From: an uncultured Lachnospiraceae bacterium
Lineage (GTDB): Bacteria; Bacillota; Clostridia; Oscillospirales; CAG-272
Direction: 5' to 3'
Length of the DNA: 64,000 nt
NCBI GenBank assembly: GCA_964498965.1
Contig: CAZCJU010000001.1
Span: 38,008-102,007, forward strand
Shown: piece by piece, positions 5,542-31,285 of the stretch
Layout of the letters: each line of letters starts with the position of its first letter
Position numbering within the stretch: position 1 is the stretch's first letter
Notes under the pieces: generated by a model
What the model was told of the DNA's origin: nothing
Databases searched by the model: none
Seen by the model: only the letters and a program-made list of their open reading frames with translations
Made by a program: the position numbers and the translations under genes

Positions 5542-5572
5542 AAATTTCCTCGTTTCTTTTGCCTGCATAGAC

Positions 5573-5630
5573 ATTTTAACCTAAAAAACGCCTGTTTTCA
5601 CGCAAATGTAATTTTCCGACCCGTAAATGT
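5573..5630 (-). promoter_or_regulatory. Candidate LytTR-regulator box plus promoter upstream of the kinase/PP2C/cpaF genes
   Basis: Minus strand reads ACATTTACG-GGTCGGAAAATT-ACATTTGCG: two 9-bp direct repeats (5630..5622 and 5609..5601) with a 12-bp spacer and 21-bp period. These are followed by a weak -35 (GTGAAA) and a -10 TAAAAT (5578..5573). The layout matches the known ComE/AgrA-type binding-site architecture, and a LytTR regulator gene lies immediately upstream. Confidence 0.45.
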
Positions 5631-5648
5631 AATTTTTCATCGATTTTT

Positions 5649-7842: not shown

Positions 7843-10800
7843 TTATGCGTTCTTCTTTTTCTTCTTTTTTCTCGAAACGATAAGCAATACGAGTGCTGTC
7901 AATGCGAGTACCGCACCGCCTATCGAGCCGTAAAGTAAGGGCTTATTCGCGTAATAGATTACCCAACGGCTTTGCGATACCGTTACCTTTGTGTATTCCG
8001 CATTATACTCGTTTGCGTGTCCGTTTCCGTCATCGGACGAGTCACAGCATATTATTCGCACTCGGTTTTCAAGCCCTTCGGGAACGGTAAACGTGACTTT
8101 TCCTCCGTTTTCGGACAAGTATGTCAAAAATTCATCGCCCGATTTTTCGAATCTTACGCTGATATCGTTTCCGTTTTCATCGCACAACGGCTCCCCGTCC
8201 GAGGTAAGCACTACGGCTTTAAAGCTGTACAATCTGCCTCCGTCGTCATTGGGTATTGCCGTTACCGTTTGTTCGCCTACACGATAGCGACCGCCGTTTT
8301 CGATTCCGCTCACGGTAACGGTCGGAGCTGTTTTATCGACGGTAAACGCCGCATTCAGTCCTTTAACGTCACTGTAAGCCGCCGCACCTGCCTTATCGGT
8401 GCTTTCCACCGTAATGCGGTATTCGCCCTCTTCGGCGAACAGATCCTTTGAGATCACATATATACGTTTGCTCCACTCGTTTTCGCTTTGCGTCAAGCTC
8501 GATATATAGTCGCTGCCCTCCGCAAGCTCTTTTCCGTTGAGCTTAACAACGTATGTGTCAACGGGGTCCGTATTGACTTCTTCTATCACCATATCCTCGT
8601 TGACGCCGTACACATAGTATTGCTCAAGCAGCTTATCCGTGCTTTTATCCGCGGTAAATGCCGATCCGTTTCTGTTTACGGAGAAATCAACTTCCTCATA
8701 TGCTATTCCGTCATCGAGGGTAAGTGTCGAGCAGGTGTTTCCCGCAAGATCCTTTACCGTGCAGACAAGGGCGTATACACCGTCGTCCGCAAGGTTTTCG
8801 AGCTTAAGCTCGTATGTATTTCCCTCCCTGACGCACTTCATATCGGCGAACGGCACGTTTTTCTTTTCATATGTTCCGTCCTTGCCGGCGACAAGTACCG
8901 TAAGGCTCGGCAAAAACGTATCACCGTTTATATTCGCATCGTCTGCCGTGATCGTAATACCGAGCTTTTCTCCTTTGTTTGCCGAATTTTGCTTCGGTCC
9001 GCTCATTTTTACGGTCGGTGCGACCGTATCCAGCGTCAGCCGCTCGGAAGTATACGATTCCATTTTGTTATCGGATCTGTCGGTATACTCGACCGTCACC
9101 GTATAATTTCCGTCATCGGTGAGTTTGAATGTGCCGTTATGTACATCGGCACTTTCGTTTTCCCACTTGACCCCGACATTTTCGCCGTTCACCTTAACGT
9201 CCACGTCTTCCGAATAGAAGTTAGCTTCGTTTATGACGAGCTTTACCTCGATATCCGACGAATAATATTTCACTCCGTCCGAAGCATACACCGGTTCGTT
9301 ATACACGACGTTCATCGTCGGTGCTATATTATCCACTATGACGCGGTGCTTGTCCGCTTTTTCCGCACTGTTTTCGGCTCGGTCATACGCCGTAAATCTT
9401 ACCGTGCCGTTGAATTGGCTTTCCGTTTTCATCGCATCCTTCGGTACGACGAAGGTTGACGAATATTTTTTACCGTCCGTTATGATATCCGCTTCCTTTA
9501 CGACGGCGTTTATCATTTCCTCGTTTACGTCGCTTACACCGGCACTCTTAACATACGAATATGCAAAGCCGTACACTCCCGAGGTTTCGTCCTCCGCACT
9601 CACCGTAACGGTCACCTCGGCGTTATAATAGCCGAATGTTATCGCTTCAAGCACTCTGTCGGTAACGCTTCTGCTGTATGTAACGGTGAGCTTTTCGGGC
9701 GGAGTCGTATCGACCGTGAATTTATCCTCGCCGTATTTCGCCGCCGCATTGCGTGCCGTATCCGAGTACGAATATCCGAATGTATAATTCGCATCGGCGG
9801 AGAAGCGTACGGTTACGGTGTGCGTATCTCCGTTTTTATTCCAGTTGGCTTCGTTCGACATATACGCCGCAAAATCCGATATTTTAACGTCGTTGCCGAG
9901 AACGTTTTTCGCCGTGACGGTCGCCGCAAAATCCGACGCACGGAAATTATGTTCCGTCACCGTCACGGTAACACTCTGTTCCTTATCGAAATATTTTCTT
10001 CCGTCGATCTCGTTCACCGCATTCGTATTGCCGTAGCGAACGCTTACGATCGGTGCGGTTTTATCGACGGTGAAAATGTCGGACTTATAATATTTCCTTG
10101 CCGTGCCGTTATCGTAAGACGATATATCGGCTTCGTTGCCGGACATATCCGTGTATTCCAGCTCCAAAACGTAATCGCCGTCTTTATCGAAGCTTATTAC
10201 GAGGCTGTGCCGATCACCGTCGCCGGACCAGTTAAAATATTTTTTCACGGCGTTTTCGTATTTGCCCAAGCTGCCCTCGGGCAGATACTCATAAACGGTT
10301 TTTCCGCCGTCGTTATTTGTTTTTGTGAGTTTTATTCCGATATTGTGTATCACGCCGTCCGACGCACGCATTCCCTCGAAGAAGCTCGCCTCGTTCACCG
10401 TGATCGTCGCTTTAATATTGCCGTTATAGTATGCATGTGTCGCTTTATCGAGCGTACTTACATCTTTTCCGCTTCCGTCCGTAAAGCGAGCTTTTGTATT
10501 TACGCTTTCCGTTTCGTATTTAATACCCACAACGGGCGAGATGCTGTCAACTACGATGATCTTCCTGTTCTTCTCGTTTTGCTCCGTGTCGTTTCCGGCT
10601 TTATCCGTCGCTTTTACGGTTATATAGCCTCTTGCCTGCGCGTCGACGGTAAACGTCGCACTCGCAACGGTTCCGTTTTCGTCGTATGTAATATCGTCCG
10701 CACCTATTCTTCCGCTTTTGCCCGAGGAATAAGTACCGCTTACGCCGTCCTGCCTTACATAGCTCCATTCGAACGAGTCAACACCCGAAATACCGTCGTT

Positions 10801-13800
10801 TGCCGTTACGGTCACGGTCACCTTATGCTTATAGAAGCCGAAGCTTACCGCTTCTGTTAATTTATCCGACAAAGAACTGCCGTATTCTATTTTAAGTCCC
10901 TCGGGTGCCGTTTTATCGACAATGACCTTTTTCCCGTAAGCCGTTCTCGTACCGTTCACCGTCAATCCGTTTCCGCTCTCGTCGGTAAAGTCAAGCAGCA
11001 GCTCGTACTCGCCCTCGTTCGACAGTGTATATTCGGCGATCCAAACTCCGTTTTCCCCGTCGTATTCCCATGTAAGAGCCGTAAATGCGTCGTTCACCTT
11101 AAAGCTCGGCTCGCTTTGACGCAGGTCGAAGTTGTCCTCTTTGATTTTGAATACGACCAGCACGTCATCCGAACCGTAGATCACGTCGCCGAGTAGCTCT
11201 TTGCCGTTTACGCTGTACTCCGTTTCGAGTATCGGCGACAGTGTATCGACGACGAGGATGCGATCCGTTTGCACGCAGTCCGAGCTTGATCCCGCCTTGT
11301 CCGTTGCGGTCATTTTCACTCTGTTTCTGAATTGTGCCGGAATATCGAAGCTGTATTCGACGCTTCCGTCCGCATTTACCGTGCAAGCATCCGCATTCAC
11401 CGTTACCTCGCCGTTGCCGATATCGTACGTCAGGTGATCTATACCCGAGGTCGCATCAAATGCTTTGAGCGTTACGGTAACGGTATCCGAACTGTATATA
11501 CCGAATGTGAGCGATTCGAGTATTCTTTCGACAAAGCCCTCCGAATACGTTATTTCGAGATTTTCGGGTGCTTTTCGGTCTATTTTTATGTTTTCGATCT
11601 CTATCGCCTGCGAGATGTTGCCGTCCTTTTTCAAATATACCGTGATATTGTTTATTCCGTCGTCACCGAGTACAAGCGACTCGGACCACTCGTTTCCGTT
11701 CAGCTTGTCCGACGTGCTTATTTCCCAGCCTTCGGGAGGGATAACGATCGCTTCTCCGACATACCATTCCGATCCGTCGTTTCTTTCGCCCGAAACGGTC
11801 GGGGTCGGTACTTCCTCCTCATTTATGTAAGAAACCGTCAGCATAAAGCTTTTTTCCAGCTCCGAATACCGTTCGTCGGCTGTTCTTTTGACCGTAACGA
11901 TAACCGAACCGACCTTGCCCTCCGAATCGACGAGCGTAATTTTTCCGTTTTCGTCGACACTTGCTCCGATATCGTTTTCTCCGACGAGATATGTATACTT
12001 TCCGTCGTTGTCCGATCTATCGTCCGTCTTGATCTCGTACTCTGTCATGCCGTATTTCAATTCCGCGTCGGACACGTAAAATTCGGGAACGGCACGCAAA
12101 ACGGTAAGCGTATATTCGACCGTGATCGCTTTATACCTATCGTCCTCCGCTTTTGTCACTCCGATCGTTATTTCGCCCGCTTTTTTCGTTAAGATTTCGC
12201 CCGTTTCGCTGTCTATTTCGGCAACATCGTCGCCCGAAACTATTTCATACGACAATTCACCGTCGCCGCTTCCGCCGCTGACGGTAAGCACGCTTTGTTT
12301 TTCATTATTGTATACGACATCTCCGGCGACGGATACGTCCGGCTTCTCCTGCTCCGCCTTTGTTACCTCAAGCGTATACTCCGCACTGCCCGCCTCATAT
12401 GTGTCGTCCGCCTCTTTTGTCACCTCTACGGTAACAAAACCGGCTTTTTTGATCGTAAGCTCACCCGTTTCGGGGTCTATATCGGCAACATCATCACCCG
12501 AGGTTATTTTGTACGTCAGCTTTCCGCTGCCGCCCGCATTCACGGGCGTGTACGTATATGTCAAGCCGTCTTTGTAAGTGACCGTCGGGTCGGGACGTTC
12601 GAATTTGAAATCGGGACTTTGATCTTTTCTTACCGCACTGACCGTATATCGTGCCGTTGCCGACTTATATTTGTCGGTTTTGGCTATCGTCGCTTCCACC
12701 GTCGCCTTGCCGGACTTTTTGAAAACAAGCGAACCCGTTTCTTCGTTTATCTCCGCAATTTCTTCGCCCGAGATCAGCTTATACGTCACCTTGCCGTCGG
12801 AGCTTTCCGAAGTTGCCTTGTTCGTGTACTCGTCACCGACAAACACGTCGTCCGGGTCCTCGTCCCCGAATTTCAGATCCGTCAATTCCTTCAGCGGTTC
12901 AACCGAATACAGCTGTGTTGCCTCGTCGTATACGGCACCGTAAATTTCGTTATCGATATACCCGCCTACGTCCGATGCGAATTTTCCGCCGATTATGCCC
13001 GTAACATTATCGACATCATCGGTCTGCGTAAGCTTACCGAACGTACCGTTTGATATATCAAGGAATATTTTGCCTTTTACCTCGTCTGTGTTTTCGAGAT
13101 GTACGTTTCCGATCTTGACGTTTTCCCCTCCGCAGATTATATATGCGTCGTTTCCGTTAAGCGGATCGACCGAGATCGCAAACGACGTTCCGGATCTGTC
13201 GGAATAGCCGTTATAAACCTCCGTGCTTCCGGAAAGTGCGAGCTTGCACCTGTTATTTACGGTGAAACGTGTTTTATCTCCCGTTTTCAGCTCCGCACCG
13301 TCAAGCGTCAGCTCACCGTCGTTTTCGATACCGTATTTAGTGCCGCAAAGCACCGTGCCGTTTTTAATGCAAAGCTTGCTGTTTTTCCTAACGCACGCAC
13401 CTGTATTTCCCGCCGTGCAAAGAGTGAGTTGTTTGCCGTTCAGCTCGAAAACCATATTTTTCGGCTCTTTTCCGTAGTAATCGCCGATATCAAGCTCCTT
13501 TTCAAGTGCGATATTATCCGCAAGACGTATCGTGACGGGCTTTTCGGGACGTTCGCCGTCACTTCCGGCGTTTGCCGCAGCTATGAGGCTTTCGAATTCG
13601 CCTGCGTCGTAAGCTCCGAAAGTACCTCCGTCTATCTCAAACTCCGTATCGACCGAGCTGTTTCCGTCCTCTATGATCCTGTCGAAGCTGCCTGCGGAAA
13701 TGTCTAACTTTACCTTGCCTTTATTGTCGCTCGTTCTCGCATATCTTTCTATCTGAACCGTGCCGACGCTTACTTCTTCGCTGTCGCAGATCAGCGACGC

Positions 13801-14457
13801 ATCGACATCGTATGTATAATACAAATTGTACGGGTCAAGCGTAACGGCGATAAAATCGTTCTTGCCTACACTCTGCTCCGTCTTGCCGTTTTCGATACTC
13901 GTTTTTCCCGAAAGCGTGAGTTTACCTCGATTGTTTACGGTGTATATCGTCATCGCACCCGACTTTAATGTAACGTTCTCAAGCGACAGCTCTCCGTAGT
14001 TTGCGATTCCGACCTTTATATGCGACGCTTCATCGTCGGGACATACCAGCGTACCGTTTTCGATATGCAGCTTGCTGTACGCCAAGACACGTATACCGTT
14101 TGTTTCCGTTCCCTTGGAACCGACGGCGGGACGAAGCGTAAGCGTATTTCCGCCGAGGTCAAGCTCTATGTTTTTTGTCACCGAGCCGTTCGCCAGTCCG
14201 ACATCGAACCCGCATTCCGTATTTGCCGTAAGTTCGATCCTCGTCGGACTGTCCGGAAGGACACGGTTCTCGCCCGACTGTGCCGCATTTATCGCTTCGG
14301 ACAGTGTTTCGTAGCTGTTATCGCCTATTTTCGCAACGCCCGTTTCCGCTTTTACGTTGACGAAAAGCACTGCCGCAGGCACCGAGCCGACGGCGATCGC
14401 CGCCGCCAGCAGTATTGCCGACAGTTTTATCGGCAGACTGTTTTTAAATTTTATCAT
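7843..14457 (-). CDS. Giant (2204 aa) secreted, C-terminally membrane-anchored, repeat-rich surface protein (putative adhesin)
   Basis: N-terminal signal peptide (KLSAILLAAAIAVGSVPAAV). Two beta-helix-like modules (GGNTLTL...NG.RV...KL.I.NGT). Four Big_2-like Ig repeats (e.g. KVTYKLISGEEIAEINEETGSLVFKKSGKATVEATI). Three ~280-aa super-repeats (LEITYSEGFVERILESLTFGIY / LKIEYGSSLSDKLTEAVSFGFY / LTVTYSRSVTDRVLEAITFGYY). C-terminal TM segment plus SRKKKKKKNA tail. ATGA overlap with the upstream gene. Confidence 0.85.
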   Translation of the reverse strand: MIKFKNSLPIKLSAILLAAAIAVGSVPAAVLFVNVKAETGVAKIGDNSYETLSEAINAAQSGENRVLPDSPTRIELTANTECGFDVGLANGSVTKNIELDLGGNTLTLRPAVGSKGTETNGIRVLAYSKLHIENGTLVCPDDEASHIKVGIANYGELSLENVTLKSGAMTIYTVNNRGKLTLSGKTSIENGKTEQSVGKNDFIAVTLDPYNLYYTYDVDASLICDSEEVSVGTVQIERYARTSDNKGKVKLDISAGSFDRIIEDGNSSVDTEFEIDGGTFGAYDAGEFESLIAAANAGSDGERPEKPVTIRLADNIALEKELDIGDYYGKEPKNMVFELNGKQLTLCTAGNTGACVRKNSKLCIKNGTVLCGTKYGIENDGELTLDGAELKTGDKTRFTVNNRCKLALSGSTEVYNGYSDRSGTSFAISVDPLNGNDAYIICGGENVKIGNVHLENTDEVKGKIFLDISNGTFGKLTQTDDVDNVTGIIGGKFASDVGGYIDNEIYGAVYDEATQLYSVEPLKELTDLKFGDEDPDDVFVGDEYTNKATSESSDGKVTYKLISGEEIAEINEETGSLVFKKSGKATVEATIAKTDKYKSATARYTVSAVRKDQSPDFKFERPDPTVTYKDGLTYTYTPVNAGGSGKLTYKITSGDDVADIDPETGELTIKKAGFVTVEVTKEADDTYEAGSAEYTLEVTKAEQEKPDVSVAGDVVYNNEKQSVLTVSGGSGDGELSYEIVSGDDVAEIDSETGEILTKKAGEITIGVTKAEDDRYKAITVEYTLTVLRAVPEFYVSDAELKYGMTEYEIKTDDRSDNDGKYTYLVGENDIGASVDENGKITLVDSEGKVGSVIVTVKRTADERYSELEKSFMLTVSYINEEEVPTPTVSGERNDGSEWYVGEAIVIPPEGWEISTSDKLNGNEWSESLVLGDDGINNITVYLKKDGNISQAIEIENIKIDRKAPENLEITYSEGFVERILESLTFGIYSSDTVTVTLKAFDATSGIDHLTYDIGNGEVTVNADACTVNADGSVEYSFDIPAQFRNRVKMTATDKAGSSSDCVQTDRILVVDTLSPILETEYSVNGKELLGDVIYGSDDVLVVFKIKEDNFDLRQSEPSFKVNDAFTALTWEYDGENGVWIAEYTLSNEGEYELLLDFTDESGNGLTVNGTRTAYGKKVIVDKTAPEGLKIEYGSSLSDKLTEAVSFGFYKHKVTVTVTANDGISGVDSFEWSYVRQDGVSGTYSSGKSGRIGADDITYDENGTVASATFTVDAQARGYITVKATDKAGNDTEQNEKNRKIIVVDSISPVVGIKYETESVNTKARFTDGSGKDVSTLDKATHAYYNGNIKATITVNEASFFEGMRASDGVIHNIGIKLTKTNNDGGKTVYEYLPEGSLGKYENAVKKYFNWSGDGDRHSLVISFDKDGDYVLELEYTDMSGNEADISSYDNGTARKYYKSDIFTVDKTAPIVSVRYGNTNAVNEIDGRKYFDKEQSVTVTVTEHNFRASDFAATVTAKNVLGNDVKISDFAAYMSNEANWNKNGDTHTVTVRFSADANYTFGYSYSDTARNAAAKYGEDKFTVDTTPPEKLTVTYSRSVTDRVLEAITFGYYNAEVTVTVSAEDETSGVYGFAYSYVKSAGVSDVNEEMINAVVKEADIITDGKKYSSTFVVPKDAMKTESQFNGTVRFTAYDRAENSAEKADKHRVIVDNIAPTMNVVYNEPVYASDGVKYYSSDIEVKLVINEANFYSEDVDVKVNGENVGVKWENESADVHNGTFKLTDDGNYTVTVEYTDRSDNKMESYTSERLTLDTVAPTVKMSGPKQNSANKGEKLGITITADDANINGDTFLPSLTVLVAGKDGTYEKKNVPFADMKCVREGNTYELKLENLADDGVYALVCTVKDLAGNTCSTLTLDDGIAYEEVDFSVNRNGSAFTADKSTDKLLEQYYVYGVNEDMVIEEVNTDPVDTYVVKLNGKELAEGSDYISSLTQSENEWSKRIYVISKDLFAEEGEYRITVESTDKAGAAAYSDVKGLNAAFTVDKTAPTVTVSGIENGGRYRVGEQTVTAIPNDDGGRLYSFKAVVLTSDGEPLCDENGNDISVRFEKSGDEFLTYLSENGGKVTFTVPEGLENRVRIICCDSSDDGNGHANEYNAEYTKVTVSQSRWVIYYANKPLLYGSIGGAVLALTALVLLIVSRKKKKKKNA

Positions 14458-15601: not shown

Positions 15602-17269
15602 TTACGGATTGACGGATTCGGCTTTTTTCACCGTTTCCGCAATCTTCGTTTTAAGTGTGCTTATGTCTTCCTCAAGCACCGATATGTTTATTTTTTCGGC
15701 TTCCGACAGTATCAGATTCAGCAGCTGCGCAACTTCTCCCGGTTCGGTAACTTCAAGCAACGGTGCTATATCCGATTCCGCCATGTCGCTTATCTCGTTC
15801 CACACCTGAAGCTTGGCGTCCACTCCGTCGAAGCCGTCGGCTTTTTCTTTCAGCTCGCACATCATGCCCCACAACCGTTTGTATTCCTCGTACATCTTTT
15901 CCGTCTGCTTTATCTTCGAGCCGTTATATTGATTTATCAGCTCAAGACAGCTTGAAATGTCACAGTAGATCCCGGCTATCGGATACTTTTCGCGTGCTTC
16001 GGCAAACCAATTATACGCATTGGCATACCTGTCGCCGGTGCTTTTGCCGTCATAGTAGAACAAAAACGACCGACCTATCTCGTAGCACACGTCGCAATAT
16101 CCGTCGCCGTCGGATTTTTTCAGTTGTTTTAAGACTTCCCTGCTCTGCGAAAAGCCGTCGTCGTCCTTTTCGTCAAGCCCTATCCGAAGCTTGGTCAGCT
16201 GCTGTCCCTCCTCCGGTGTCAACAGAAAATCGTCCGTAAGAAATTTATTCAACTGCAAATACGCTTCCGTTTTCGTCGGGTCGGTCAGTATCGCTTCGTA
16301 ATAGTCCTCCGTCGAATCGGCGGATCTTAAAATAACCTCGTAATTTTCGCTTTTCTTGTTCTCCGAGCATATATAGCCCCAAACGGAAACGGCGGCGAGG
16401 ATAAGCGTGAGGATCGCCGTAAATATGAACAGTCCGAGCTTTCTTTTCTGCTTCTTCTTATGTATGTCGTCTATTTCCTCGTAATGCTCGAGTGCGTACA
16501 TAAGCTCCGCACACGACTGATATCTGTCCGCGGGATTTCTCTGCGTGCATTTTTGTATTATCCGCTCCAAGCCTCCCGACAATGTGGGGTTTATTTCCCT
16601 TATCGGCTTAAGCTCGTAGGGCGGTTCGCTCGGATTTCTGCCGGTCACCAAATGATACAGCGTCGTTCCCAAACAGTATATATCCGTCCTTGCATCGGTT
16701 TGTCCCATACCGCCGAATTGCTCCGGTGCGGCATATCCGACCGTGCCTAAGCAGGTCGTATCCGCCAGATTTTTTTCCTTGTACTCTCTTGCCGTACCGA
16801 AATCTATGAGCATTATGTTGCCGTCGGGTTTGAGCATTATGTTTGCCGGCTTCATGTCCCTGTATATGATCGACGGCGAACGACTGTGCAGATAGCCCAA
16901 TACGTCGCACAGCTGTTTTGCCCAGAGGATCACGGTTTCCTGAGGTTGCGCTCCGAATTCCTCCAACGTTTTGTTCAGCGAATTTCCCTGAATGTAGTCC
17001 ATTATGATGATAAACGAGTCTTCCGTGTCTATAACGTCGATAATACTCGGCAGATTCGGGTGATCCAGCTTTTTCAAAATGTCGGTTTCGGCAATAAGTC
17101 CCTGCTTGACCGATTCGAAATCAAGCACACCGTCCTTTCGTACCTCCTTGACCGCCCATTGTTTATTCGCCTTTTCGTTCATGGCGAGATAAACAACGCT
17201 CATTCCGCCTTGACCGACCTTGTTCAGTATCTTGTATTTTCCGTCGACAAGCGATCCTATTTCAAGCAT
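15602..17269 (-). CDS. Hanks-type Ser/Thr protein kinase, single-pass, with a helical extracytoplasmic domain
   Basis: 555 aa. Motifs GQGGMSVVY, WAVKEV, YRDMKPANIML, DFGTA and GTVGYAAPEQ. One TM segment (LGLFIFTAILTLILAAVSVWGYI), then ~230 aa of helical-repeat-like sequence. No PASTA repeats recognised. Confidence 0.9.
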   Translation of the reverse strand: MLEIGSLVDGKYKILNKVGQGGMSVVYLAMNEKANKQWAVKEVRKDGVLDFESVKQGLIAETDILKKLDHPNLPSIIDVIDTEDSFIIIMDYIQGNSLNKTLEEFGAQPQETVILWAKQLCDVLGYLHSRSPSIIYRDMKPANIMLKPDGNIMLIDFGTAREYKEKNLADTTCLGTVGYAAPEQFGGMGQTDARTDIYCLGTTLYHLVTGRNPSEPPYELKPIREINPTLSGGLERIIQKCTQRNPADRYQSCAELMYALEHYEEIDDIHKKKQKRKLGLFIFTAILTLILAAVSVWGYICSENKKSENYEVILRSADSTEDYYEAILTDPTKTEAYLQLNKFLTDDFLLTPEEGQQLTKLRIGLDEKDDDGFSQSREVLKQLKKSDGDGYCDVCYEIGRSFLFYYDGKSTGDRYANAYNWFAEAREKYPIAGIYCDISSCLELINQYNGSKIKQTEKMYEEYKRLWGMMCELKEKADGFDGVDAKLQVWNEISDMAESDIAPLLEVTEPGEVAQLLNLILSEAEKINISVLEEDISTLKTKIAETVKKAESVNP

Positions 17270-17281: not shown

Positions 17282-18049
17282 TTAAAACGTTCTTATCGTT
17301 ATGACGGATATGTTGTCGCGTTCGCCGCGTTGCTTGTTCAATTCGATAAGCCCGAATCCGCCCCTGTCCATGGCAGCTCTGTCGGTCAGTACCTCCGGTC
17401 GCAGAGCCTCGAATATCTCATCGGGGCTTATCTCGTGCCTGAAGCCGTCCGAGCAAAGCATATAAGTGGCGTTTTGAAGCACATGACCGGTGAAAAAGTC
17501 GGGATATACCTCCTGCGACGCTCCTATGCATTGCAGAAGCACGCTTCTTCTTTCGTCGATCTCCGCTTGCTCGGGTGTCATATTGCCCAATGCGACCTCG
17601 CGTGCGACAAAAGTCTGATCGTACGTCAATTGCGTGAGCGTCGAGCCTATTTCATAGGCCCGGGAATCTCCGACGTTCATTATGCAGTAATCCGTTTGCG
17701 TGAGAAGCATTGCGACGGCGGTCGTGCCGAGCCTTACACCTTGTCTGCCGCCGTAGGTCCCTATCACGTTGTTTTGACCGATGAGTATTCTCTCCCACTG
17801 TGCCTTGATCGTGTCGGCATCTATTCCGTTCCGACATAACGTCGGCAGCTCGTCGATCACCCATCGATCGAATGCCCTTATTACCGATGCACTCGCCACC
17901 TCGCCTTTCGCAAGTCCGCCCATTCCGTCACATAAAACAGCAAAAGACAGCCTGCCCGCCGCAGTGTTTATCACCTTGACGGATAAGCTGTCCTGATTTG
18001 TACTTTTCACGTTTCCGATATCCGTATTCGCCGAAACAATAAAATCCAT
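17282..18049 (-). CDS. PP2C-family Ser/Thr protein phosphatase
   Basis: PPM motifs TDIGNVKSTNQDS, VLCDGMGGLAKGEVAS, NVGDSRAY, LCSDGF and ERDNISVI. Start taken as ATG 18049 (MDFIVSANTD...). The 34-codon upstream extension in the ORF track lies in a repeated non-coding cassette. Confidence 0.85.
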   Translation of the reverse strand: MDFIVSANTDIGNVKSTNQDSLSVKVINTAAGRLSFAVLCDGMGGLAKGEVASASVIRAFDRWVIDELPTLCRNGIDADTIKAQWERILIGQNNVIGTYGGRQGVRLGTTAVAMLLTQTDYCIMNVGDSRAYEIGSTLTQLTYDQTFVAREVALGNMTPEQAEIDERRSVLLQCIGASQEVYPDFFTGHVLQNATYMLCSDGFRHEISPDEIFEALRPEVLTDRAAMDRGGFGLIELNKQRGERDNISVITIRTF

Positions 18050-18140
18050 CGTTTGTGCCTTTCTTCGCATGATATTATACGGTCGGCAATTCTCGATATT
18101 CGTTGTACGCATCGTGAGCGTCAATATGTTTATACGTCCG

Positions 18141-18230
18141 TACGCCATCATACGCCATCATACGCCATCATACGCCATCATACGCCATCGTACGTCATCA
18201 TACGTCATCATACGACATCGTACGACATCG
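18141..18230. repeat. Tandem array of nine 10-bp units (TACGNCATCR)
   Basis: tacgccatca x4, tacgccatcg, tacgtcatca x2, tacgacatcg x2. Exact 10-bp phase. Lies about 90-180 bp upstream of the PP2C start codon. Confidence 0.95.
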
Positions 18231-18361
18231 ATCGACAATCGCCGATAACATTATACATTTTATGAATTTAAAAAAATATATATGTTAAAAAAGGACCTTA
18301 TTTTGTAAAAAACGGATCATATCGACAACGTATTCGGCACGCATTCGAATGTAAACGCAAC

Positions 18362-18384
18362 AAAAAAAGGCAACATTGCCTTTT
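18362..18384 (-). terminator. Rho-independent terminator (minus strand) inside repeat copy A
   Basis: Minus strand reads AAAGGCAA-TG-TTGCCTTTTTTTG: a 7-bp stem followed by a T7 run. Lies downstream of the acyl-CoA synthetase gene. Confidence 0.7.
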
Positions 18385-18469
18385 CGTAAATATGTATTTC
18401 ACCTTTAGCTTTTCCGTTCCGTACGCCTTTCCTTCATAAAGCTTTTCCGCTCTCCGTCCGTAAAGCTTT

Positions 18470-18540
18470 CTCCTTCGGGTACGGCGGCGATCGCCGCTCC
18501 TCCCTCGCAAGCCTTCCCCTGCCGGAGAAGGCTTGCGGAG
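18470..18540. repeat. REP-like GC-rich hairpin element
   Basis: ggcggcgatcgccgc palindrome followed by the hairpin gcaagccttc-ccctgccgga-gaaggcttgc (18507..18536). Confidence 0.7.
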
Positions 18541-18552: not shown

Positions 18553-20202
18553 TTATTTCACATATTCCTTTGCTTTATTTCTGATGATCTTATCCGACGA
18601 GGTTTTCGGCAAGGAATCGACATACACTATACGTCTGGGGTATTTATACGGGGCGGTGCTTCTTTTTACATAAGCTTGAAGCTCTTTAGTCAGCTCATCG
18701 CTTGCGACGTAGCCTTTATTAAGTGCTATGACGGCACACACTATCTGACCTCTCACGGGGTCGGGTGCTCCGACTATGGCACTTTCCTTTACCGCCGGGT
18801 GGGCATTGAGGATACTTTCTATTTCAAACGGTCCTATTCTGTAGCCCGAGCATTTTATCATATCGTCCACTCGTCCGACGTACCAGAAATAGCCGTCCTC
18901 ATCGGCATACGCCGTATCGCCGGTATGATATATTCCGTCTGCGGCGGGATCGGTTCTTTTTCCGTCGAGGCAATAGCAATCGAGCAAGCCGAGCTGATTT
19001 TTTCTGTCGTGTATCCTCATCACTATTTCGCCCGTTTCGCCCGTTCTGCACAGGCTTCCGTCGGGGTGTACCAGCACGGTATCGTACAAGGGCGAGGGCT
19101 TACCCATTGAAGCGGGGCGGACATCGAGCCACGAGAACGTACAGGTTATGGGAGTACCCTCGCTTTGACCGTAGCCCTCGTGTATATAGTGACCCGTAAG
19201 GGCTTTGAATCTGTCGTTCACCTCGCCCGACAGCGGTTCGCCCGCCGTCGAGAACCACTTTACGGACTTAATATGTTTTTTTTCAAGTCCGTCACGAAGC
19301 AAAAATCTGTACATCGTCGGCGGTATACATATCGAGGTGGGCTTATATTTTTCCGTTATCGCCATCATATTCACGGTATTGAATTTGATCGGGTCGTATG
19401 CGAGTACGGCACTGCCGCATATCCACTGACCGTAGATATTGCCCCAACCGAATTTTGCCCATCCCGAATCGGTCTGAGTCAGGTGCAGACCGTTATTCCG
19501 CACTCTTTGCATAAATTTCGCCGTAACTATATGACCGAGCGGGTACAGTCGGTTGTGTATTGCCATTTTGGGATATCCCGATGTACCGGATGTGAAGTAG
19601 ATCACCATTTCGTCGCTGTTTTCGGCATTTCGTTCCTCCTCGTACAGAGGAGAGCCTGTCATTTCCGCATCGAAGTCGTCATACGGTGTATCGCTTTGTT
19701 TGTTGACTGCCGCAATGCGGACAAGTGAGGGACAAAGTCCGCTTATCCCGTCTATCTGCTTCATCACGAACTCGTCGTCGAGGGCTATGAGCATTTTTGC
19801 CTGTGCCGAATTTATTCTGTATGCGATATCCTTGGTCGTCATCTGTATCGACGAGGGAGCGACGACCGCACCTATTCTCGCACAGGCAACGGCGATGACC
19901 CAATATTCCCATCTGCGTCTGAGCAGGGTGACCACTCTGTCGCCACGACCTATACCGACACACGTGAAATACGATGCCGCTTTTTTCGACAACTCCGAAA
20001 TATCCGAAAACGTGAACACTCTCTCGTCACCGTCGTCGGTGCAATAGACGAGGGCCTTTTTTTCGGGTTCTATCTTCGCCCATTCATCGACGATATCGCG
20101 TGCAAAATCGAAATTTTCGGGTATATTTATTCTGAAATTCTTTTTAAATTCCTCATACGAATCGAACTCGTACTCGGGCAGATATCTTTGCAAAAGCTCC
20201 AT
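18553..20202 (-). CDS. AMP-forming acyl-CoA synthetase (acetyl/medium-chain acyl-CoA ligase family)
   Basis: AMP-binding motifs IYFTSGTSGYPK, YGQSEG, YHTGD and a C-terminal PKTSSDKIIR. Start set to ATG 20202 because the predicted promoter -10 (20252..20257) overlaps the longer ORF start at 20253. Confidence 0.85.
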   Translation of the reverse strand: MELLQRYLPEYEFDSYEEFKKNFRINIPENFDFARDIVDEWAKIEPEKKALVYCTDDGDERVFTFSDISELSKKAASYFTCVGIGRGDRVVTLLRRRWEYWVIAVACARIGAVVAPSSIQMTTKDIAYRINSAQAKMLIALDDEFVMKQIDGISGLCPSLVRIAAVNKQSDTPYDDFDAEMTGSPLYEEERNAENSDEMVIYFTSGTSGYPKMAIHNRLYPLGHIVTAKFMQRVRNNGLHLTQTDSGWAKFGWGNIYGQWICGSAVLAYDPIKFNTVNMMAITEKYKPTSICIPPTMYRFLLRDGLEKKHIKSVKWFSTAGEPLSGEVNDRFKALTGHYIHEGYGQSEGTPITCTFSWLDVRPASMGKPSPLYDTVLVHPDGSLCRTGETGEIVMRIHDRKNQLGLLDCYCLDGKRTDPAADGIYHTGDTAYADEDGYFWYVGRVDDMIKCSGYRIGPFEIESILNAHPAVKESAIVGAPDPVRGQIVCAVIALNKGYVASDELTKELQAYVKRSTAPYKYPRRIVYVDSLPKTSSDKIIRNKAKEYVK

Positions 20203-20251
20203 TTTTCCACAGCTCCGTGTTTTTTTCGTTATTTCATGACCTTTTCTTTGC

Positions 20252-20280
20252 ATTATACTATAATATTGCCGTTAAGTCAA
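20252..20280 (-). promoter_or_regulatory. Sigma-A-type promoter for the acyl-CoA synthetase gene
   Basis: Minus strand: TTGACT (20280..20275), 17-nt spacer, TATAAT (20257..20252). Confidence 0.6.
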
Positions 20281-20371
20281 GGACATTTTTTTCACATTTA
20301 GTATGAATTTTTTAAAACACGGAGAAAATGCGGGGTAAAACGGCAGCTTGTGTCAAAGCTTTATACCGTAT

Positions 20372-20397
20372 GGCGTGCGGTTTTCGGTCCGCACGCC
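20372..20397 (-). terminator. Stem-loop downstream of the last phage-like gene (possible terminator, no U-tract)
   Basis: 9-bp perfect stem ggcgtgcgg / ccgcacgcc with an 8-nt loop, 17 nt after the stop at 20414. It lacks a T-run, so its function is uncertain. Confidence 0.35.
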
Positions 20398-20413
20398 GCA
20401 TCGTTTCGGTCCG

Positions 20414-21358
20414 TCAATCGAAATAATCGATATCTACGCCCGATTTATACAGATCGAGAGCCGTATTCAGCTGTTCCATCGTATATCTCGGATTTTTGGA
20501 GGCGACGATGTTTTTGTATATATTCGCGAAATCGCGTGCGTAATCGTTTGAATCACGCAAGGTTTTCACTATTTCCTTTACCCTGTCGTCATAGCTTTCC
20601 GATTTCTTTTTGGACGTTATCTCCTTGCGGAATTTATTCACCATGGACGAATATCTCGAACTTCCGAATATGCTTTCTGCGTTTTCGGCGTTCACGCCCG
20701 TCACGGATTGATATATCCGTTGCATCTCGTCCGAGGTCTTTGCCTTTTCGAATTCCGTAAGCATTCTGTTATACAGCTCCGTTCTGTACGCCTCGATCGT
20801 TCCGCCGTCCGACGTGCCGGAGCCGGAGGAGGAGTAGGTGCCGTATTTTTTATCGGATTCCGCTTTTTTGAAGTTCAGCTCTTCTCTTTTCAAAGCGTTT
20901 TCCTCCTCGTCGCTTTGAGCCTTGTAAAGCTCGTCCGCAAGCTCTTTATCCGCTTGAAGCTGTGCTTCCGCCCGCTTCGCCTCGATGTCGGACAGTTTGC
21001 CGTTTCTTTCCGACAAAAGCGTGTCGAGTCGGCTCTTGCTGTCGCGTCCGAGCTGTGCCAGATCGGAATTATACGTAAGCTCGCTTTTAAGCTTCATATC
21101 GGTTTCCAATCCGCTTCCCGAATAGCCGTTATTCGTAATGTAGTAATTGAGATACCTACTCGCTTTCGCCTTGTTTGCGGCAAGAGCGTTTTTTTGTTTC
21201 TCGTAAGCGTCGTTTTCCGTTTTGACTTCGCTGTCGTAGCTTTCGTTCGCCACCGCCGCCAAAGCGTTGTACGCTCGGTCTATATTCTCCTTTTTGTCGC
21301 TGTTCAACAGCTGTGCCAGCTGCTTATATGCCTTGTATGCATTGCTTTCGCCCGCCAT
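20414..21358 (-). CDS. Phage-like coiled-coil protein, function unknown
   Basis: 314 aa, rich in K/E/A/S heptad-like sequence (LQADKELADELYKAQSDEEENALKREELNFKKAESDKK). Last gene of the cluster. No catalytic motif recognised. Confidence 0.45.
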   Translation of the reverse strand: MAGESNAYKAYKQLAQLLNSDKKENIDRAYNALAAVANESYDSEVKTENDAYEKQKNALAANKAKASRYLNYYITNNGYSGSGLETDMKLKSELTYNSDLAQLGRDSKSRLDTLLSERNGKLSDIEAKRAEAQLQADKELADELYKAQSDEEENALKREELNFKKAESDKKYGTYSSSGSGTSDGGTIEAYRTELYNRMLTEFEKAKTSDEMQRIYQSVTGVNAENAESIFGSSRYSSMVNKFRKEITSKKKSESYDDRVKEIVKTLRDSNDYARDFANIYKNIVASKNPRYTMEQLNTALDLYKSGVDIDYFD

Positions 21359-21370
21359 TCGATCCCTCCT

Positions 21371-22129
21371 TTAATCGACCGTTCGCTTGTATCCGTAAAC
21401 GAATACCGCACCGCCGCCTCCGCTTACTTCGCCCCAGCCGCCTCCGCCGTAGCCCGACGGATTTTTAACATCGTCCCTTACGGCTCCTCCTACCGCACCC
21501 TTGCCGTAGGTCAGGCAGTCGCCGCCTTTGCCGTAATCGTCAGTGCCGTCGCCGTAAACGCTGTCCGTGCCGTATATTCCGCTTCCTCGTGCGATCTTGG
21601 AATATTCGCTTCCGACGCCGCCGCCCGAGGCGATGCCGATGTATTCCTCTCCGTCCTCGCTCATAAAGCTCGTCGTTTCGCCGACTTGACCGACGCTTCC
21701 GCCTCCTCCGACGGTCACCGTATAACGTCCGGACAGCGATACTCCGTTTATGAGCGACGCATCGCCTCCGCCGCCGCCGAGCGTTACCGTGCCGACGTAG
21801 CCGCCGCCACCGCCGCCTATAAGCACGATATCGTACAAGCCGTTGTAGCTTTCGTATTCGTCCGTGTCGAAAACATATTCGCCCGTCTTGGTAAACGAGG
21901 CAAGACGCACTCTCGTCGGAATGTATTTGTACCCTCCGTCGCCGAGTACCGTGTTCGCCAGCTCGTCCAAAATGCACGGAATGAGCGTGTCGTTTATGTA
22001 ATTTTTGATTATGTTTCCGCTCTCGTCGAATTTCGCCTTGAGTGCCTGCGGCGTGTAGTCCGGGCTTGCGGGCGAATCGGGCAAAGCGGAAATTATGTCC
22101 ATGCTTTTTTTCAGCTTTTCAATTGCCAT
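21371..22129 (-). CDS. Glycine-rich tail-fibre-like protein
   Basis: 252 aa. The N-terminus (ISALPDSPASPDYTPQALKAKFDESGNIIKNYINDTL) resembles N-termini of Firmicutes phage tail fibres. The C-terminal half carries poly-Gly blocks (LIGGGGGGYVG, LGGGGGDA, VGGGGSVG, GYGGGGWGEVSGGGGAV). Confidence 0.55.
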   Translation of the reverse strand: MAIEKLKKSMDIISALPDSPASPDYTPQALKAKFDESGNIIKNYINDTLIPCILDELANTVLGDGGYKYIPTRVRLASFTKTGEYVFDTDEYESYNGLYDIVLIGGGGGGYVGTVTLGGGGGDASLINGVSLSGRYTVTVGGGGSVGQVGETTSFMSEDGEEYIGIASGGGVGSEYSKIARGSGIYGTDSVYGDGTDDYGKGGDCLTYGKGAVGGAVRDDVKNPSGYGGGGWGEVSGGGGAVFVYGYKRTVD

Positions 22130-22204
22130 TCGATTTCCTCAAATTCTTTTTTCGAGATCTCAAAATTTTCATTGTTCGGTTGTAAACCTTTTCCTTTTAT
22201 GTGA

Positions 22205-22340
22205 AGGCTTCTCGGGAAGCTTCTGTGCGATAACGCCCTCATCCGTCAAGCCTTCAAATCGCCGCCTCCCCCGAAAGAGGACGACTTACGGGGGCGGTTA
22301 CCGCCTTCCCCCGGAGGAGGAAGGCTTACGAAGCGGGGTC
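22205..22340. repeat. REP-like GC-rich hairpin element inside the phage-like cluster
   Basis: gccttccccc-ggag-gaggaaggc hairpin (22303..22325), plus cctcatccgtcaagccttc and ccccgaaagagg words of the family. Lies between the endolysin and fibre genes. Confidence 0.7.
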
Positions 22341-23376
22341 AACGGTTTACTTTTATCAAATGCTCCGTTGCACACCAGGTAGACAGCGATGAGCCGATCT
22401 CGCCCGTTTTTCTGTTCACCTTTCTGCCGAGCAGCACGCACTCCGCACCGTTTTTCAGCACCTTATTACCTCGGGAATCGGCTGTTTTTTCCGCAATATA
22501 ATCGTAATCCCGCACCCATTTCGGAAAATTCGCACTGCCGGGTGCATACGAGCTTTTATCCTCTCGAAGCCGCACGACATCTCCGACCTTTATCGTCGTT
22601 TTTTCATTCGGTATAAGAAGCTTTTGACCGACGAATATCAGATTCGGGTCGGCTATACCGTTATATTCGGCAAGGCACTTATACTCCGTACCGTATTTTT
22701 TCGCCACGGCGTAAAGGGTATCGCCCTTTTTCACGATATACTCCGTCGTTCTCCCGTCTGTTTTTTCATTTTCCTTAAGCGACAGCCTAAAGTACTCGGC
22801 TATAGCCTCCGCTTCGGCTTTTGCGACGAGCTTCCTTTTTTCTCCGTCCGCCATAAATCCGCACTCGGCTTTGTTCGTATGGAAGCCGTGTTCGATGATA
22901 TACGAGTATTTCAAGCCGTTTTTCACGCTTGAGCGGATAACGCCGTAATAATCGAGTATTTCGCCGTTATTCCCCTCATATGTCCTCGTCATAACGCCTC
23001 TCAAATATGTTTTGGACGTATGCTTTCGCATTACCGTCGCTACCGCCTCGCCGAGCTTCACGCCCAGTTTGTCGCTCTCGTAGTTTTTTATGCTTCTGAA
23101 AACGGACACGCCGTGAGCCTTTTCGCTGTTTGCGGCATTCGTATGTAACGATATGAACAGCTCCGAGCCGTTATCCCTCGCTGTCTTTCCTCTTTTTTCG
23201 AGTGTCGGGTCGTCATCGACGCTTTGTCTTGTGACGTAAACGTTCACGTCGGCGTATTTTTCAAGCTCTGCTTTAAGCTCGTATGCCAGCTCGAAAACGG
23301 CACTGCCCTCGTAATAGCCGTCAACGATGCCCTTATTCGTATATCGACCGTGACCGGGATCGAGAGTTATCGTCAT
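22339..23376 (-). CDS. Endolysin: N-acetylmuramoyl-L-alanine amidase (Amidase_3) + LysM + C-terminal binding domain
   Basis: 345 aa. Amidase_3 start ITLDPGHGRYTNKG...ELFISLHTNA...EHGFHTN. LysM motif YIVKKGDTLYAVAKKYGTEYKCLAEYNGIADPNLIFVGQKLLIP. SH3-like tail. Confidence 0.9.
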   Translation of the reverse strand: MTITLDPGHGRYTNKGIVDGYYEGSAVFELAYELKAELEKYADVNVYVTRQSVDDDPTLEKRGKTARDNGSELFISLHTNAANSEKAHGVSVFRSIKNYESDKLGVKLGEAVATVMRKHTSKTYLRGVMTRTYEGNNGEILDYYGVIRSSVKNGLKYSYIIEHGFHTNKAECGFMADGEKRKLVAKAEAEAIAEYFRLSLKENEKTDGRTTEYIVKKGDTLYAVAKKYGTEYKCLAEYNGIADPNLIFVGQKLLIPNEKTTIKVGDVVRLREDKSSYAPGSANFPKWVRDYDYIAEKTADSRGNKVLKNGAECVLLGRKVNRKTGEIGSSLSTWCATEHLIKVNR

Positions 23377-26176: not shown

Positions 26177-27010
26177 TTACGCCTCCTCGCCGAGCGTAAC
26201 GTCCAAAAGCATAAGCTCCTTGGGGTAAACTATCTTCGCTCCGTAAAGGTGAAGCCCCTTCACCGCATCGGCAAATCTCTTCTCGGGGCGGTATGCCTCG
26301 ACCTCGTTTATCTGCTCCGCAAAGGCTATGGCTCGCTTCGTTCTCGCAAAACATTTATATGCACCGCCGTTTTTGACGATATTGTTCGAAACGTATACCT
26401 TGAAGCCCAAAAACGTACCGATACAGCCTTTGTCAAGCTCGCTCTCGTTGCTCGTGCCGTTCATTATCTTCGCCTTGATTATCTTTGCGGCAACGGCGGG
26501 CGTAACCTCCAAAATTATCTCCTCGTTACCGGCTACGTTGTTTTCGAGCAATGCCCGACGTACCCCGAGGAGCAGATCGATAACTCCGTCCGACGTGAGA
26601 GAATCCGCTTTTACCGTGTTCTCCGCGGATACCGAAGAATAAAGCGAATAAATGTATTTGTCCGCTTCGTCGGATAATGCGGAAGCGGCAATGCTCATCG
26701 CCTCCTGCATGAGCTTGGGCGTGGATTGTGCTTTGTCTATGTCGTCTATCAAAAAGTTGAAGCCCTTTGCCCTGTCGATAACAAGCGAACGCTCCGAATC
26801 CGAAAGCTCCTCCGGAGCTTCCATGTCCGTGTTCTTTTCGTAGTCGAATACACTTATCGGATTGATTCCGATTATCTTTACCGTGTCGCCGATGCTCTTG
26901 ATGTCACCCTCGAAATCCCGACTGCAATTTTTCACGCCGATGTATTCCTTTTCAAGCTCTCTGTAAAGCGTTTCGCTCCATATTTTGGGTATAAAATAAG
27001 AAAGTGCCAT
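26177..27010 (-). CDS. Major capsid-like protein
   Basis: 277 aa. The N-terminus MALSYFIPKIWSETLYRELEKEYIGVKNCSRDFEGDIKSIGDTVKI resembles small P22-coat/HK97-fold capsid families of Firmicutes phages. Sits after the portal and scaffold-like genes. Confidence 0.6.
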   Translation of the reverse strand: MALSYFIPKIWSETLYRELEKEYIGVKNCSRDFEGDIKSIGDTVKIIGINPISVFDYEKNTDMEAPEELSDSERSLVIDRAKGFNFLIDDIDKAQSTPKLMQEAMSIAASALSDEADKYIYSLYSSVSAENTVKADSLTSDGVIDLLLGVRRALLENNVAGNEEIILEVTPAVAAKIIKAKIMNGTSNESELDKGCIGTFLGFKVYVSNNIVKNGGAYKCFARTKRAIAFAEQINEVEAYRPEKRFADAVKGLHLYGAKIVYPKELMLLDVTLGEEA

Positions 27011-27039
27011 TTTTTATCTCCTTTTAAATTTAATTTCAT

Positions 27040-27140
27040 TAAGCCTTCCCCCTTGGGGAAGGTGTCAGCCGAAGTCCCCACTTCGTAAGGCTTCCCCCTT
27101 GGGGGGTAGGTGTCGATCCGAAGGCTTGACGGATGAGGAC
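27040..27140. repeat. REP-like GC-rich hairpin element inside the phage-like cluster
   Basis: ccttcccc-cttg-gggaagg (27044..27062), aaggcttcccccttggggggtagg, and gtcgatccgaaggcttgacggatgaggac, which recurs almost verbatim at 61782..61810. Confidence 0.75.
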
Positions 27141-27153
27141 ATTATCCCGCCTC

Positions 27154-27209
27154 ACATCGATCGTCGATCGTCGAACGTCAATCGTCGAACGTCGAACGTC
27201 AATCGAAAA
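27154..27209. repeat. Tandem array of about eight 7-bp units (WCGTCRA)
   Basis: acatcga tcgtcga tcgtcga acgtcaa tcgtcga acgtcga acgtcaa tcgaaaa. It starts at the stop codon of the 114-aa gene. Confidence 0.85.
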
Positions 27210-27543
27210 AGCCGCCTTGCTCCATGCTTTCGACTATCGCGATATAATTTTCTCTGACCTCTTTATCCGTCATGCACGCAACCTGCTTTGCCGTAAAAAA
27301 GCCGTTTTTGCCGCCGAGGCTTATTTTGCCCGAGCTTTCCCGGCGGTTTTTGCCGTTCACACGCTCCGCCACGCCTCCCAAGCTGTCTTTGTCTATCAAA
27401 TATCTCGCATACGCTTCCTTAAGCGAGCCGCCGTCGGCTACACTTCGCCACACCGTATCGGGTATTGCGTCGGGATCGACCTCGGGATATGCGTCGAAAA
27501 GCTCCTCGATGCTTTTCGATATTTTATCTTCCTTATCGCTCAT
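27199..27543 (-). CDS. Scaffold-like small acidic protein
   Basis: 114 aa, acidic N-terminus. The C-terminal motif FTAKQVACMTDKEVRENYIAIVESMEQGGF resembles phage scaffolding-protein C-termini. Lies between the portal and capsid genes. Confidence 0.4.
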   Translation of the reverse strand: MSDKEDKISKSIEELFDAYPEVDPDAIPDTVWRSVADGGSLKEAYARYLIDKDSLGGVAERVNGKNRRESSGKISLGGKNGFFTAKQVACMTDKEVRENYIAIVESMEQGGFFD

Positions 27544-29116: not shown

Positions 29117-29175
29117 TGTTCCTTCTCCCCCCGTCCTCGGGCTGTACCGTAAAGCCGTCGGACTAATGACTATGA

Positions 29176-31074: not shown

Positions 31075-31285
31075 CGCCCCTCGCCTTCTCCCGAAGCCGC
31101 TCTCTCATAGCCTTCCGCCCTCTTGGGAAAGATGCCGGCGTAGCCCCCTCCCGTAAGCTTCCACGTAAACCTTCCCTCTCGGGGACGGTGGCAATCGCAC
31201 CCCTTCGTAAGCCTCCCCTACCCCTCGTAAGCCTCCCCTTCGGGGAAAGGTGTCGGCGTAGCCGCCGGATGAAGGCGGTTTTTCT
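31075..31285. repeat. Cluster of REP-like GC-rich hairpin elements in the leader of the phage-like cluster
   Basis: Several family words: gccttctcccgaagc, ccgccctcttgggaaaga, ccttccctctcggggacgg, cctccccttcggggaaagg, and tgtcggcgtagccgccggatgaaggc. Confidence 0.7.

Follow-up and report, generated by a model that had tools for sequence, protein, structure and literature searches.

All of the relevant genes at the two loci considered here are encoded on the minus strand of the 64-kb window, that is, the whole stretch of DNA that was analysed. At locus A, a PP2C phosphatase gene heads an operon that continues with a Ser-Thr kinase gene (15602-17269), the genes of two small membrane proteins and that of an Ig-like adhesin (7843-14457, 2204 aa), successive genes being spaced by 12 nt or overlapping by 4 nt. 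Beyond this operon, a GHKL histidine kinase gene, a second kinase/PP2C pair and Tad-pilus genes are found downstream, and the upstream neighbour is the minus-strand gene of an AMP-binding enzyme (18553-20253). At locus B, two paralogous zinc-ribbon membrane-protein genes, the first with its ATG at 58052, have a miaB-like gene and a YlbF/YmcA-family gene (58590-58985) as their upstream neighbours. As the original prediction stated, two copies of one intergenic cassette lie in the same orientation between a minus-strand stop (18553; 58590) and the following start (18049; 58052). The genes and the two copies are as follows.

17282 to 18049, minus strand: PP2C phosphatase, first gene of its operon, ATG at 18049 (Pfam).
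55237 to 58052, minus strand: two paralogous zinc-ribbon membrane-protein genes, 56835-58052 and 55237-56817 (Pfam Zn_Ribbon_1; the pair also occurs in contig L013).
18071 to 18497, minus strand: copy A, probably the native cassette, upstream of the PP2C-STK-adhesin operon (alignment and differences; promoter part 87% identical to contig L004).
58091 to 58495, minus strand: copy B, probably the derived cassette, upstream of the two zinc-ribbon membrane-protein genes (absent from the orthologue in L013).

The two copies form a direct repeat of about 420 bp with a spacing of 39,997 bp, and they are the sole long repeat pair of such kind within the window. Their limits and their near-identity outside the tandem arrays, which had also been claimed, are agreed upon by a MAFFT alignment, a low-stringency blastn search of the full 64-kb window with either intergenic region as query, and a per-column list of differences. 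These differences are unevenly spread. None was found across a 196-nt core (18237-18432), which spans the terminator to the predicted start site, whereas the distal 65 nt have seven, six of them transitions and the other an indel (7/65 nt versus 0/196 nt, Fisher p = 4.6e-5). The arrays differ by a 30-nt (three-unit) indel and 10 substitutions, single substitutions are found at 18236 and 18076, and a 7-nt duplication, CGAATAT, is present in copy B. The identical core fits either constraint or a recent or continuing homogenisation of the functional part, and could instead stem from a very recent event rather than from function.

An assembly artefact was rejected because the copies differ and because the B junction recurs in an independent sample, where a 1.6-kb Logan contig (L001) has the identical zinc-ribbon protein and the identical junction. 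Exactly 30 nt of this contig precede the first B-specific base, presumably as expected from an assembly graph with k = 31 if that sample also holds copy A. Exact-protein look-ups with PP2C (both starts), ymcA, the AMP-binding enzyme and miaB found no other assembly of the same strain; the zinc-ribbon protein alone led to L001. The spurious peptide TLTMRTTNIE said to be shared by the copies was indeed found in long ORFs of both. A protein-coding cassette was nevertheless rejected, since its 70-aa ORF is without a homologue among 5.8 billion proteins, which argues against the ORF being a gene.

Read along the minus strand, each copy presents a GGCGGCGATCGCCGC palindrome with three decayed REP-like half sites (AAGCTTT...), a hairpin, a CATTCGAATG palindrome, an AT-rich promoter region and a leader. 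These parts, and two repeats adjoining the cassette, are located as follows.

18433 to 18497, minus strand: distal 65 nt, containing the GGCGGCGATCGCCGC palindrome and decayed half sites of REP type (AAGCTTT..); the most diverged part outside the arrays.
18362 to 18384 (A) and 58359 to 58381 (B), no strand: putative bidirectional intrinsic-terminator hairpin, AAAAGGCAAUGUUGCCUUUUUUU on the minus strand (RNAfold; identical in the copies).
18342 to 18351 (A) and 58339 to 58348 (B), no strand: perfect 10-bp palindrome CATTCGAATG, a candidate operator between terminator and promoter (sequence reading).
18250 to 18309 (A) and 58247 to 58306 (B), minus strand: predicted promoter region (consensus scan, and conservation upstream of PP2C in relatives).
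18231 to 18245 (A) and 58228 to 58242 (B), no strand: promoter-side arm of an imperfect 15-nt inverted repeat, minus-strand TCGGCGATTGTCGAT (13/15 bases).
18141 to 18229, minus strand: predicted leader of copy A, tandem array with 8.9 units of the 10-bp GATGNCGTAY (TRF, pattern search).
58166 to 58227, minus strand: counterpart of that array in copy B, likewise in the predicted leader, with 6.2 units of 10 bp in a differing mix (TRF).
18083 to 18097 (A) and 58103 to 58117 (B), no strand: proximal arm of the same inverted repeat, plus-strand TCGGCAATTCTCGAT (13/15 bases).
18506 to 18537, no strand: complete hairpin of REP type, next to copy A and not included in the repeat (-31 kcal/mol).
58493 to 58574, no strand: tandem array with 11.7 units of the 7-bp CGCACGT, adjoining copy B without belonging to the repeat; it lies in the 3' region of the ymcA-like gene (TRF).

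The shared hairpin is plausibly a moderate bidirectional terminator, with folding energies of -9.9 kcal/mol on the minus strand and -8.7 kcal/mol on the plus strand as modelled by RNAfold. A strong terminator had been announced for each copy; its presence was upheld and its strength was not, as the 9-bp stem is largely A-U and the hairpin failed a consensus terminator scan. The promoter and the start site of both copies are predicted from consensus matches and conservation. In copy A the candidates are TTTACA-16-TAACAT (18309-18282), whose -10 is weak, and a consensus TATAAT (18255-18250) preceded by an AT-rich stretch and lacking a good -35. The promoter-region sequence AAAATGTATAATG was found at the two copies only within the window. 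The repeat was said to end 20-40 bp before the start codons, and distances of 21 nt (PP2C) and 38 nt (zinc-ribbon) were measured; each gene therefore retains its own ribosome-binding site. The claim that a whole intergenic control region (terminator, promoter and leader) stands upstream of unrelated genes is borne out, the PP2C and zinc-ribbon proteins having no blastp match to each other at E <= 10 and belonging to different Pfam families.

The predicted leader is about 190 nt long in both copies and contains the promoter-side arm, the (GATGNCGTAY)n array, about 45 nt of unique sequence and the other arm, in that order. Thirteen matches to the array pattern were found against 0.23 expected, and the number of units differs between the paralogous copies (8.9 versus 6.2, from one sequence per locus). 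The 13/15 inverted repeat brackets about 135 bp and was matched by 3.7% of shuffles, which is weak on its own. The MFE fold of each leader (z-scores of -1.8 and -1.5) has the two arms paired in a long-range stem, and the substitution at 18236, the sole A/B change in the arm region, occupies an unpaired position of the predicted stem. Rfam gave no matches in the window at the gathering score and chance-level matches only at E <= 10.

A REP-type palindrome had been described in each copy. The true hairpin, however, lies outside the repeat and beside copy A only, whereas inside the repeat there are the GGCGGCGATCGCCGC palindrome and the decayed half sites, the latter being confined to the distal 65 nt. 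The hairpin belongs to a family, GTAAGCCTTCCCC...GGGGAAGGCTTAC, that matches the window 11 times where 0.67 would be expected and that occupies many intergenic regions. The GGCGGCGATCGCCGC palindrome recurs with its flank at 61730-61766, and one end of the cassette coincides with a dispersed REP-like GGCGATCGCC motif. The cassette resembles REP, REPIN and Correia-type repeats in that its distal end consists of REP-like motifs, but it is non-palindromic as a whole, about ten times the length of a REP and seen twice only. The usual description of REP/REPIN elements, a short palindrome of about 20-40 nt in many intergenic regions, applies to the neighbouring hairpin family and not to the 420-bp cassette.

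Related sequences allow a direction of copying to be proposed. The best non-self match of PP2C is 83% identical, and one of its matches is from a Clostridia bacterium MAG; the PP2C homologues thus point to an uncultured organism of Clostridia type. Three contigs carrying the closest PP2C orthologue (L004, L005 and L009; 83% aa identity) open with the terminator tail, given as GGCTTTTT-GTTG in L004, and match the window at 87% over 18319-18249, the promoter region, and at 93% over 18073-18034. Between these two matches there are about 19 nt, including one GATGACGTAT unit at the position of the array, compared with 176 nt in the window. The CATTCGAATG palindrome is partly conserved in L004 as TATTCGAGTG. 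A more distant relative (L014, 77%) shows a weaker match to the PP2C promoter stretch. Since all four contigs keep this stretch, the terminator-promoter part appears ancestral at locus A, and its retention upstream of PP2C in relatives points to a real regulatory region. The closest relative lacks the expanded array and about 80 nt of distal leader, which makes this part of the cassette specific to the lineage of the window.

At locus B the situation is different. The only orthologue of the zinc-ribbon protein among 5.8 billion proteins (63% aa identity) is encoded on contig L013, which shares the two-gene arrangement. The region upstream of these genes is unrelated to the cassette and bears its own consensus promoter, TTGACA-17-TATAAT; it matches the window only over 58085-58041 (about 45 nt), just outside the repeat. 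Because the orthologous locus has a promoter of its own and no cassette, locus B appears to be the recipient, with its former promoter gone. Copy A would then be the native donor and copy B the derived recipient, as judged from one zinc-ribbon orthologue at 63% and from short contigs; the original prediction had given no such direction. An origin of the distal leader from the native zinc-ribbon promoter was also considered and rejected, the alignment with L013 being unconvincing and blastn giving no match.

The explanation preferred here, with a probability of about 0.62, is that the native terminator, promoter and leader of the PP2C operon were copied, as a unit of about 420 bp, to the zinc-ribbon pair, displacing the promoter of the latter. 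Ectopic recombination or gene conversion may have placed the copy before the zinc-ribbon genes, with the REP-family GGCGATCGCC motif at its distal end perhaps assisting, and the loss of their former promoter would amount to promoter capture or reuse. At both loci, transcription from the upstream gene would stop at the shared hairpin, and RNA polymerase would restart in the shared AT-rich region, at TTTACA-16-TAACAT and/or TATAAT. A leader of about 190 nt with the 10-bp array would be transcribed ahead of operon-specific ribosome-binding sites. The arrays themselves may be by-products of slippage that evolve fast and grew apart after the copying.

If the shared promoter region starts both operons, they would now be co-regulated, answering to one promoter and to whatever binds there. 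As this region is both conserved upstream of PP2C in relatives and common to the two loci, shared transcriptional control of the two operons, as originally suggested, may fairly be inferred. The further suggestion that the zinc-ribbon proteins belong functionally with the kinase/adhesin system went beyond what was found, having the shared promoter as its one piece of evidence; given the independent promoter of the zinc-ribbon locus in L013, any functional link would be recent and lineage-specific. Copying of the PP2C control region would represent a natural regulatory rewiring by non-coding DNA in which donor and recipient are identifiable and the old promoter of the recipient is gone. A further prediction is that the two uncharacterised zinc-ribbon membrane proteins are co-expressed with a kinase/phosphatase/adhesin operon beside a Tad-pilus cluster, which would provide a testable hint on the role of these proteins.

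Promoter-region duplication, or promoter capture, is a known kind of event, as indicated by a survey that reported more than 4000 families of putative mobile promoters, mostly pairs, with an average identity of 92% (Matus-Garcia, Nijveen & van Passel, 2012; PMC3575422). With thousands of cases of promoter reuse catalogued, the present pair should be no surprise to a specialist and is a clean but ordinary case. That survey set a minimum of 80% identity across 50 nt or more in the interval from -150 to -50 relative to the start codons of two non-paralogous genes in one genome (PMC3575422); here the -150 to -50 stretches of the two genes show 91% identity over 76 nt upstream of non-paralogous genes, with promoter function predicted. 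Similar non-coding DNA before non-homologous genes of one genome is common to both, as is the pair, the commonest family size in the survey, in which the mechanism of movement is unknown (PMC3575422). The unit described here differs in being far longer than the scored 100-nt stretch, taking in the preceding terminator as well as a leader with a VNTR, and in that donor and recipient can be distinguished through relatives. Its length from terminator to leader, its internal VNTR and this distinguishable direction make the case a little unusual.

Promoter capture proper has been exemplified by citT in the E. coli long-term evolution experiment and by IS-mediated promoter recruitment (cited in PMC3575422). 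In these cases too, a gene gains the promoter of another gene by DNA rearrangement. The known cases are junctions of tandem duplications or IS elements, whereas here a small intergenic segment would have been copied 40 kb away without flanking genes or a visible IS.

Among the alternatives, the best surviving, though unlikely, is that the cassette or its inner part of about 165 bp (array and distal leader) is a MITE-like, non-autonomous mobile promoter with more copies elsewhere. The inner part is bracketed by the 13/15 inverted repeat and flanked on both sides by GTATAAT, its absence from the closest relative resembles an empty site, and the cassette is where contigs from relatives and from the same strain break off. 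Against this, only two copies occur in the 64 kb, and both inner parts lie within the larger 420-bp duplication and are therefore not independent insertions; for the same reason the GTATAAT pair is not independent evidence of a target-site duplication. The 420-bp unit is without terminal inverted repeats, the flanks of copies A and B have no common direct repeat, and the inner inverted repeat is of a quality that 3.7% of shuffles attain. Stepwise indels fit better than a single clean insertion, as the closest relative has one array unit left at the site and the additional DNA of the window falls to either side of that unit.

The searches for further copies bear on the same alternative. The cassette motifs occur nowhere else within the window. 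A distant blastn against phages and plasmids and one scan of viral contigs yielded no match to the cassette. Scans of genome and metagenome contigs, collections from which the source genome is absent, with a 20-mer from the core returned one chance match each, in a Bryobacteraceae membrane-protein gene and its homologue. With two copies in the window, no terminal inverted repeats, no target-site duplication and no phage or plasmid match, the mobile cassette put forward in the original prediction as its second option found no support.

It is quite improbable that the duplication arose recently through recombination between dispersed REP-like repeats, as a selectively neutral by-product without any effect on regulation. 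The genome is rich in REP-like elements, the distal boundary falls on GGCGGCGATCGCCGC, a REP-family motif with another occurrence at 61730, and an identical core could be merely young. At the zinc-ribbon locus, however, a native promoter of the orthologue type is absent, so that these genes would need the cassette, or read-through, for their expression; furthermore, the uneven spread of differences (p = 4.6e-5) is unexpected for a single neutral young copy.

Other forms of control are found at the same operon in related bacteria. In three sister lineages (PP2C 75-76% identical), the orthologous operon is preceded by a segment of about 1.42 kb that encodes a tyrosine recombinase and is flanked by inverted repeats of 26-34 bp whose core is TTGCGTAGAACT. 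Two otherwise identical assemblies, L010 and L011, carry this segment in opposite orientations: in L011 a TTGACG-18-TATAAT promoter faces PP2C, and in L010 the recombinase gene and a terminator hairpin do so. The operon is therefore phase-variable by inversion in those lineages. The cassette precedes the same operon but is unrelated in sequence to this inverton of 1.4 kb with its own tyrosine recombinase. A remnant of the inverton in the window was rejected, as the TTGCGTAGAACT motif is absent from the window and blastn found no match there to the segment of the sister lineages. Regulatory turnover at the PP2C operon seems to be high, the promoter being fixed here while the sister lineages use a recombinase inverton, and the locus may be a useful small model of how gut Clostridia change the control of surface structures.

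Such turnover motivates, without proving, the idea that the array-bearing leader acts as an alternative switch. A portable leader module (a hypermutable 10-bp array within the 15-bp inverted repeat) would have functionally replaced the recombinase-driven inverton of the sister species and been copied along with the promoter to a second membrane-protein locus, forming a small, stochastically co-switched regulon; this is an improbable proposal. If it were true, expression would be set by repeat number, inversion or RNA structure. In Moraxella, AGAT repeats in the 5'-UTR of uspA2 control the expression of a surface protein through repeat number. The leader of the adhesin operon likewise contains a tandem array with differing unit numbers, but its unit is 10 bp long and the variation is seen only between two paralogous copies.

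A reading in which the conserved element is primarily RNA and owes its duplication to that RNA function is very unlikely; the RNA would be either a structured cis-regulatory leader, with the long-range stem enclosing the array, or a small RNA terminated by the shared hairpin. The same long-range stem is predicted in both leaders, with the sole substitution of the stem region on an unpaired base, and the region upstream of the terminator folds better than its shuffles (z = -3.8). This last value stems, however, from the REP hairpin outside the repeat, whereas the leaders themselves reach z-scores of only -1.8 and -1.5. No Rfam match was obtained at gathering or permissive thresholds, two near-identical copies give no covariation to test, and the closest relative is without the leader altogether.

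Least credible is an invertible 5'-UTR switch in the leader segment that phase-varies both operons with a recombinase encoded elsewhere: its position between promoter and ribosome-binding site, its size of about 135-150 bp and its imperfect inverted repeats of about 15 bp resemble Clostridial switches, and the orthologous operon is under inversion control in sister lineages, but the 49 Pfam-scanned ORFs of the window contain no integrase or resolvase domain, a single orientation was seen (window and L001), the inverted repeat is short, weakly significant and without similarity to those of the relatives, and the inverted sequence would make no obvious terminator or promoter. The known Clostridial 5'-UTR switches (C. 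difficile cwpV and flgB) have a similar position, size and inverted repeats. These switches, together with cmrRST and the invertons of gut bacteria, share with the cassette a regulatory module between the promoter and the start codon of a surface-protein operon, and differ from it in that here there is no recombinase and no second orientation, and the inverted repeats agree at only 13/15 bases.

The two copies were also considered as attL and attR of a 40-kb island, which was rejected because the interval consists mostly of housekeeping genes (including those of HPr kinase, Hsp33, threonine synthase and aminotransferases) and is without an integrase. Phage capsid and portal genes at 26-29 kb resemble a separate remnant.

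In contigs of sister lineages (PP2C 75-76% identical), the orthologous PP2C-kinase-adhesin operon is immediately preceded by an invertible segment of about 1.42 kb:

L010:2367-3856, invertible segment
L011:2367-3856, invertible segment
L017:1474-2945, invertible segment
L019:1112-2589, invertible segment

The segment carries a tyrosine recombinase gene and is flanked on both sides by inverted repeats of 26-34 bp with the core TTGCGTAGAACT. Its orientation is the sole difference between L010 and L011, which are otherwise identical. In one orientation a TTGACG-18-TATAAT promoter is aimed at PP2C, and in the other the recombinase gene and a terminator are aimed at it. The contig end L012:1 lies within the inverted repeat of this inverton, and the three contigs with the closest PP2C orthologue (L004, L005 and L009; 83% amino-acid identity), which come from independent samples, share a common end base (position 1) within the tail of the cassette's terminator hairpin. 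Since contigs from several independent samples stop at the same base, these end points suggest repeated or polymorphic DNA there in the relatives too.

The operon predicted to be under cassette control belongs to a larger surface/adhesion cluster, as indicated by the genes located downstream of the adhesin operon:

95-6953, second pair of Ser/Thr kinase and PP2C genes, histidine kinase of the GHKL type (HATPase_c_5), genes for a Tad pilus (TadA-like ATPase, TadZ-like)

Elsewhere in the window, phage-like genes and long overlapping reading frames were found:

20350-22204, overlapping ORFs, 498 aa on the plus strand and 314 and 252 aa on the minus strand
22339-23376, LysM amidase, near the capsid and portal genes
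26177-29368, genes for phage capsid-like (Phage_capsid_4) and P22-type portal proteins

The overlapping ORFs gave no Pfam matches, and either strand may be coding. No integrase was seen with the capsid and portal genes, so they are probably what is left of a prophage or else a cluster of the gene-transfer-agent type.

Several short repeats were also recognized in the window:

31046, 31287, 31314, 31389, 37018, 37148, exact CGAACNNNNGTTCG palindrome
18506-18537, 22229-22340, 27038-27146, 31090-31260, 61670-61819, GC-rich REP-like hairpins, approximately GTAAGCCTTCCCC-loop-GGGGAAGGCTTAC
27157-27205, 7-bp tandem array TCGATCG/TCGAACG, about 7 units
58493-58574, 7-bp tandem array CGCACGT, 11.7 units

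The six exact palindromes (0.33 expected) form two clusters and bear a putative resemblance to the Firmicute LexA (Cheo) box. The REP-like hairpins are grouped in intergenic regions, their half-site matching 11 times in the window against 0.67 expected. Both 7-bp arrays are likewise intergenic, each immediately adjoining REP-like sequence. Motifs resembling this hairpin family were also noted at the start of L004 and of L013, the contig with the zinc-ribbon orthologue (63%).
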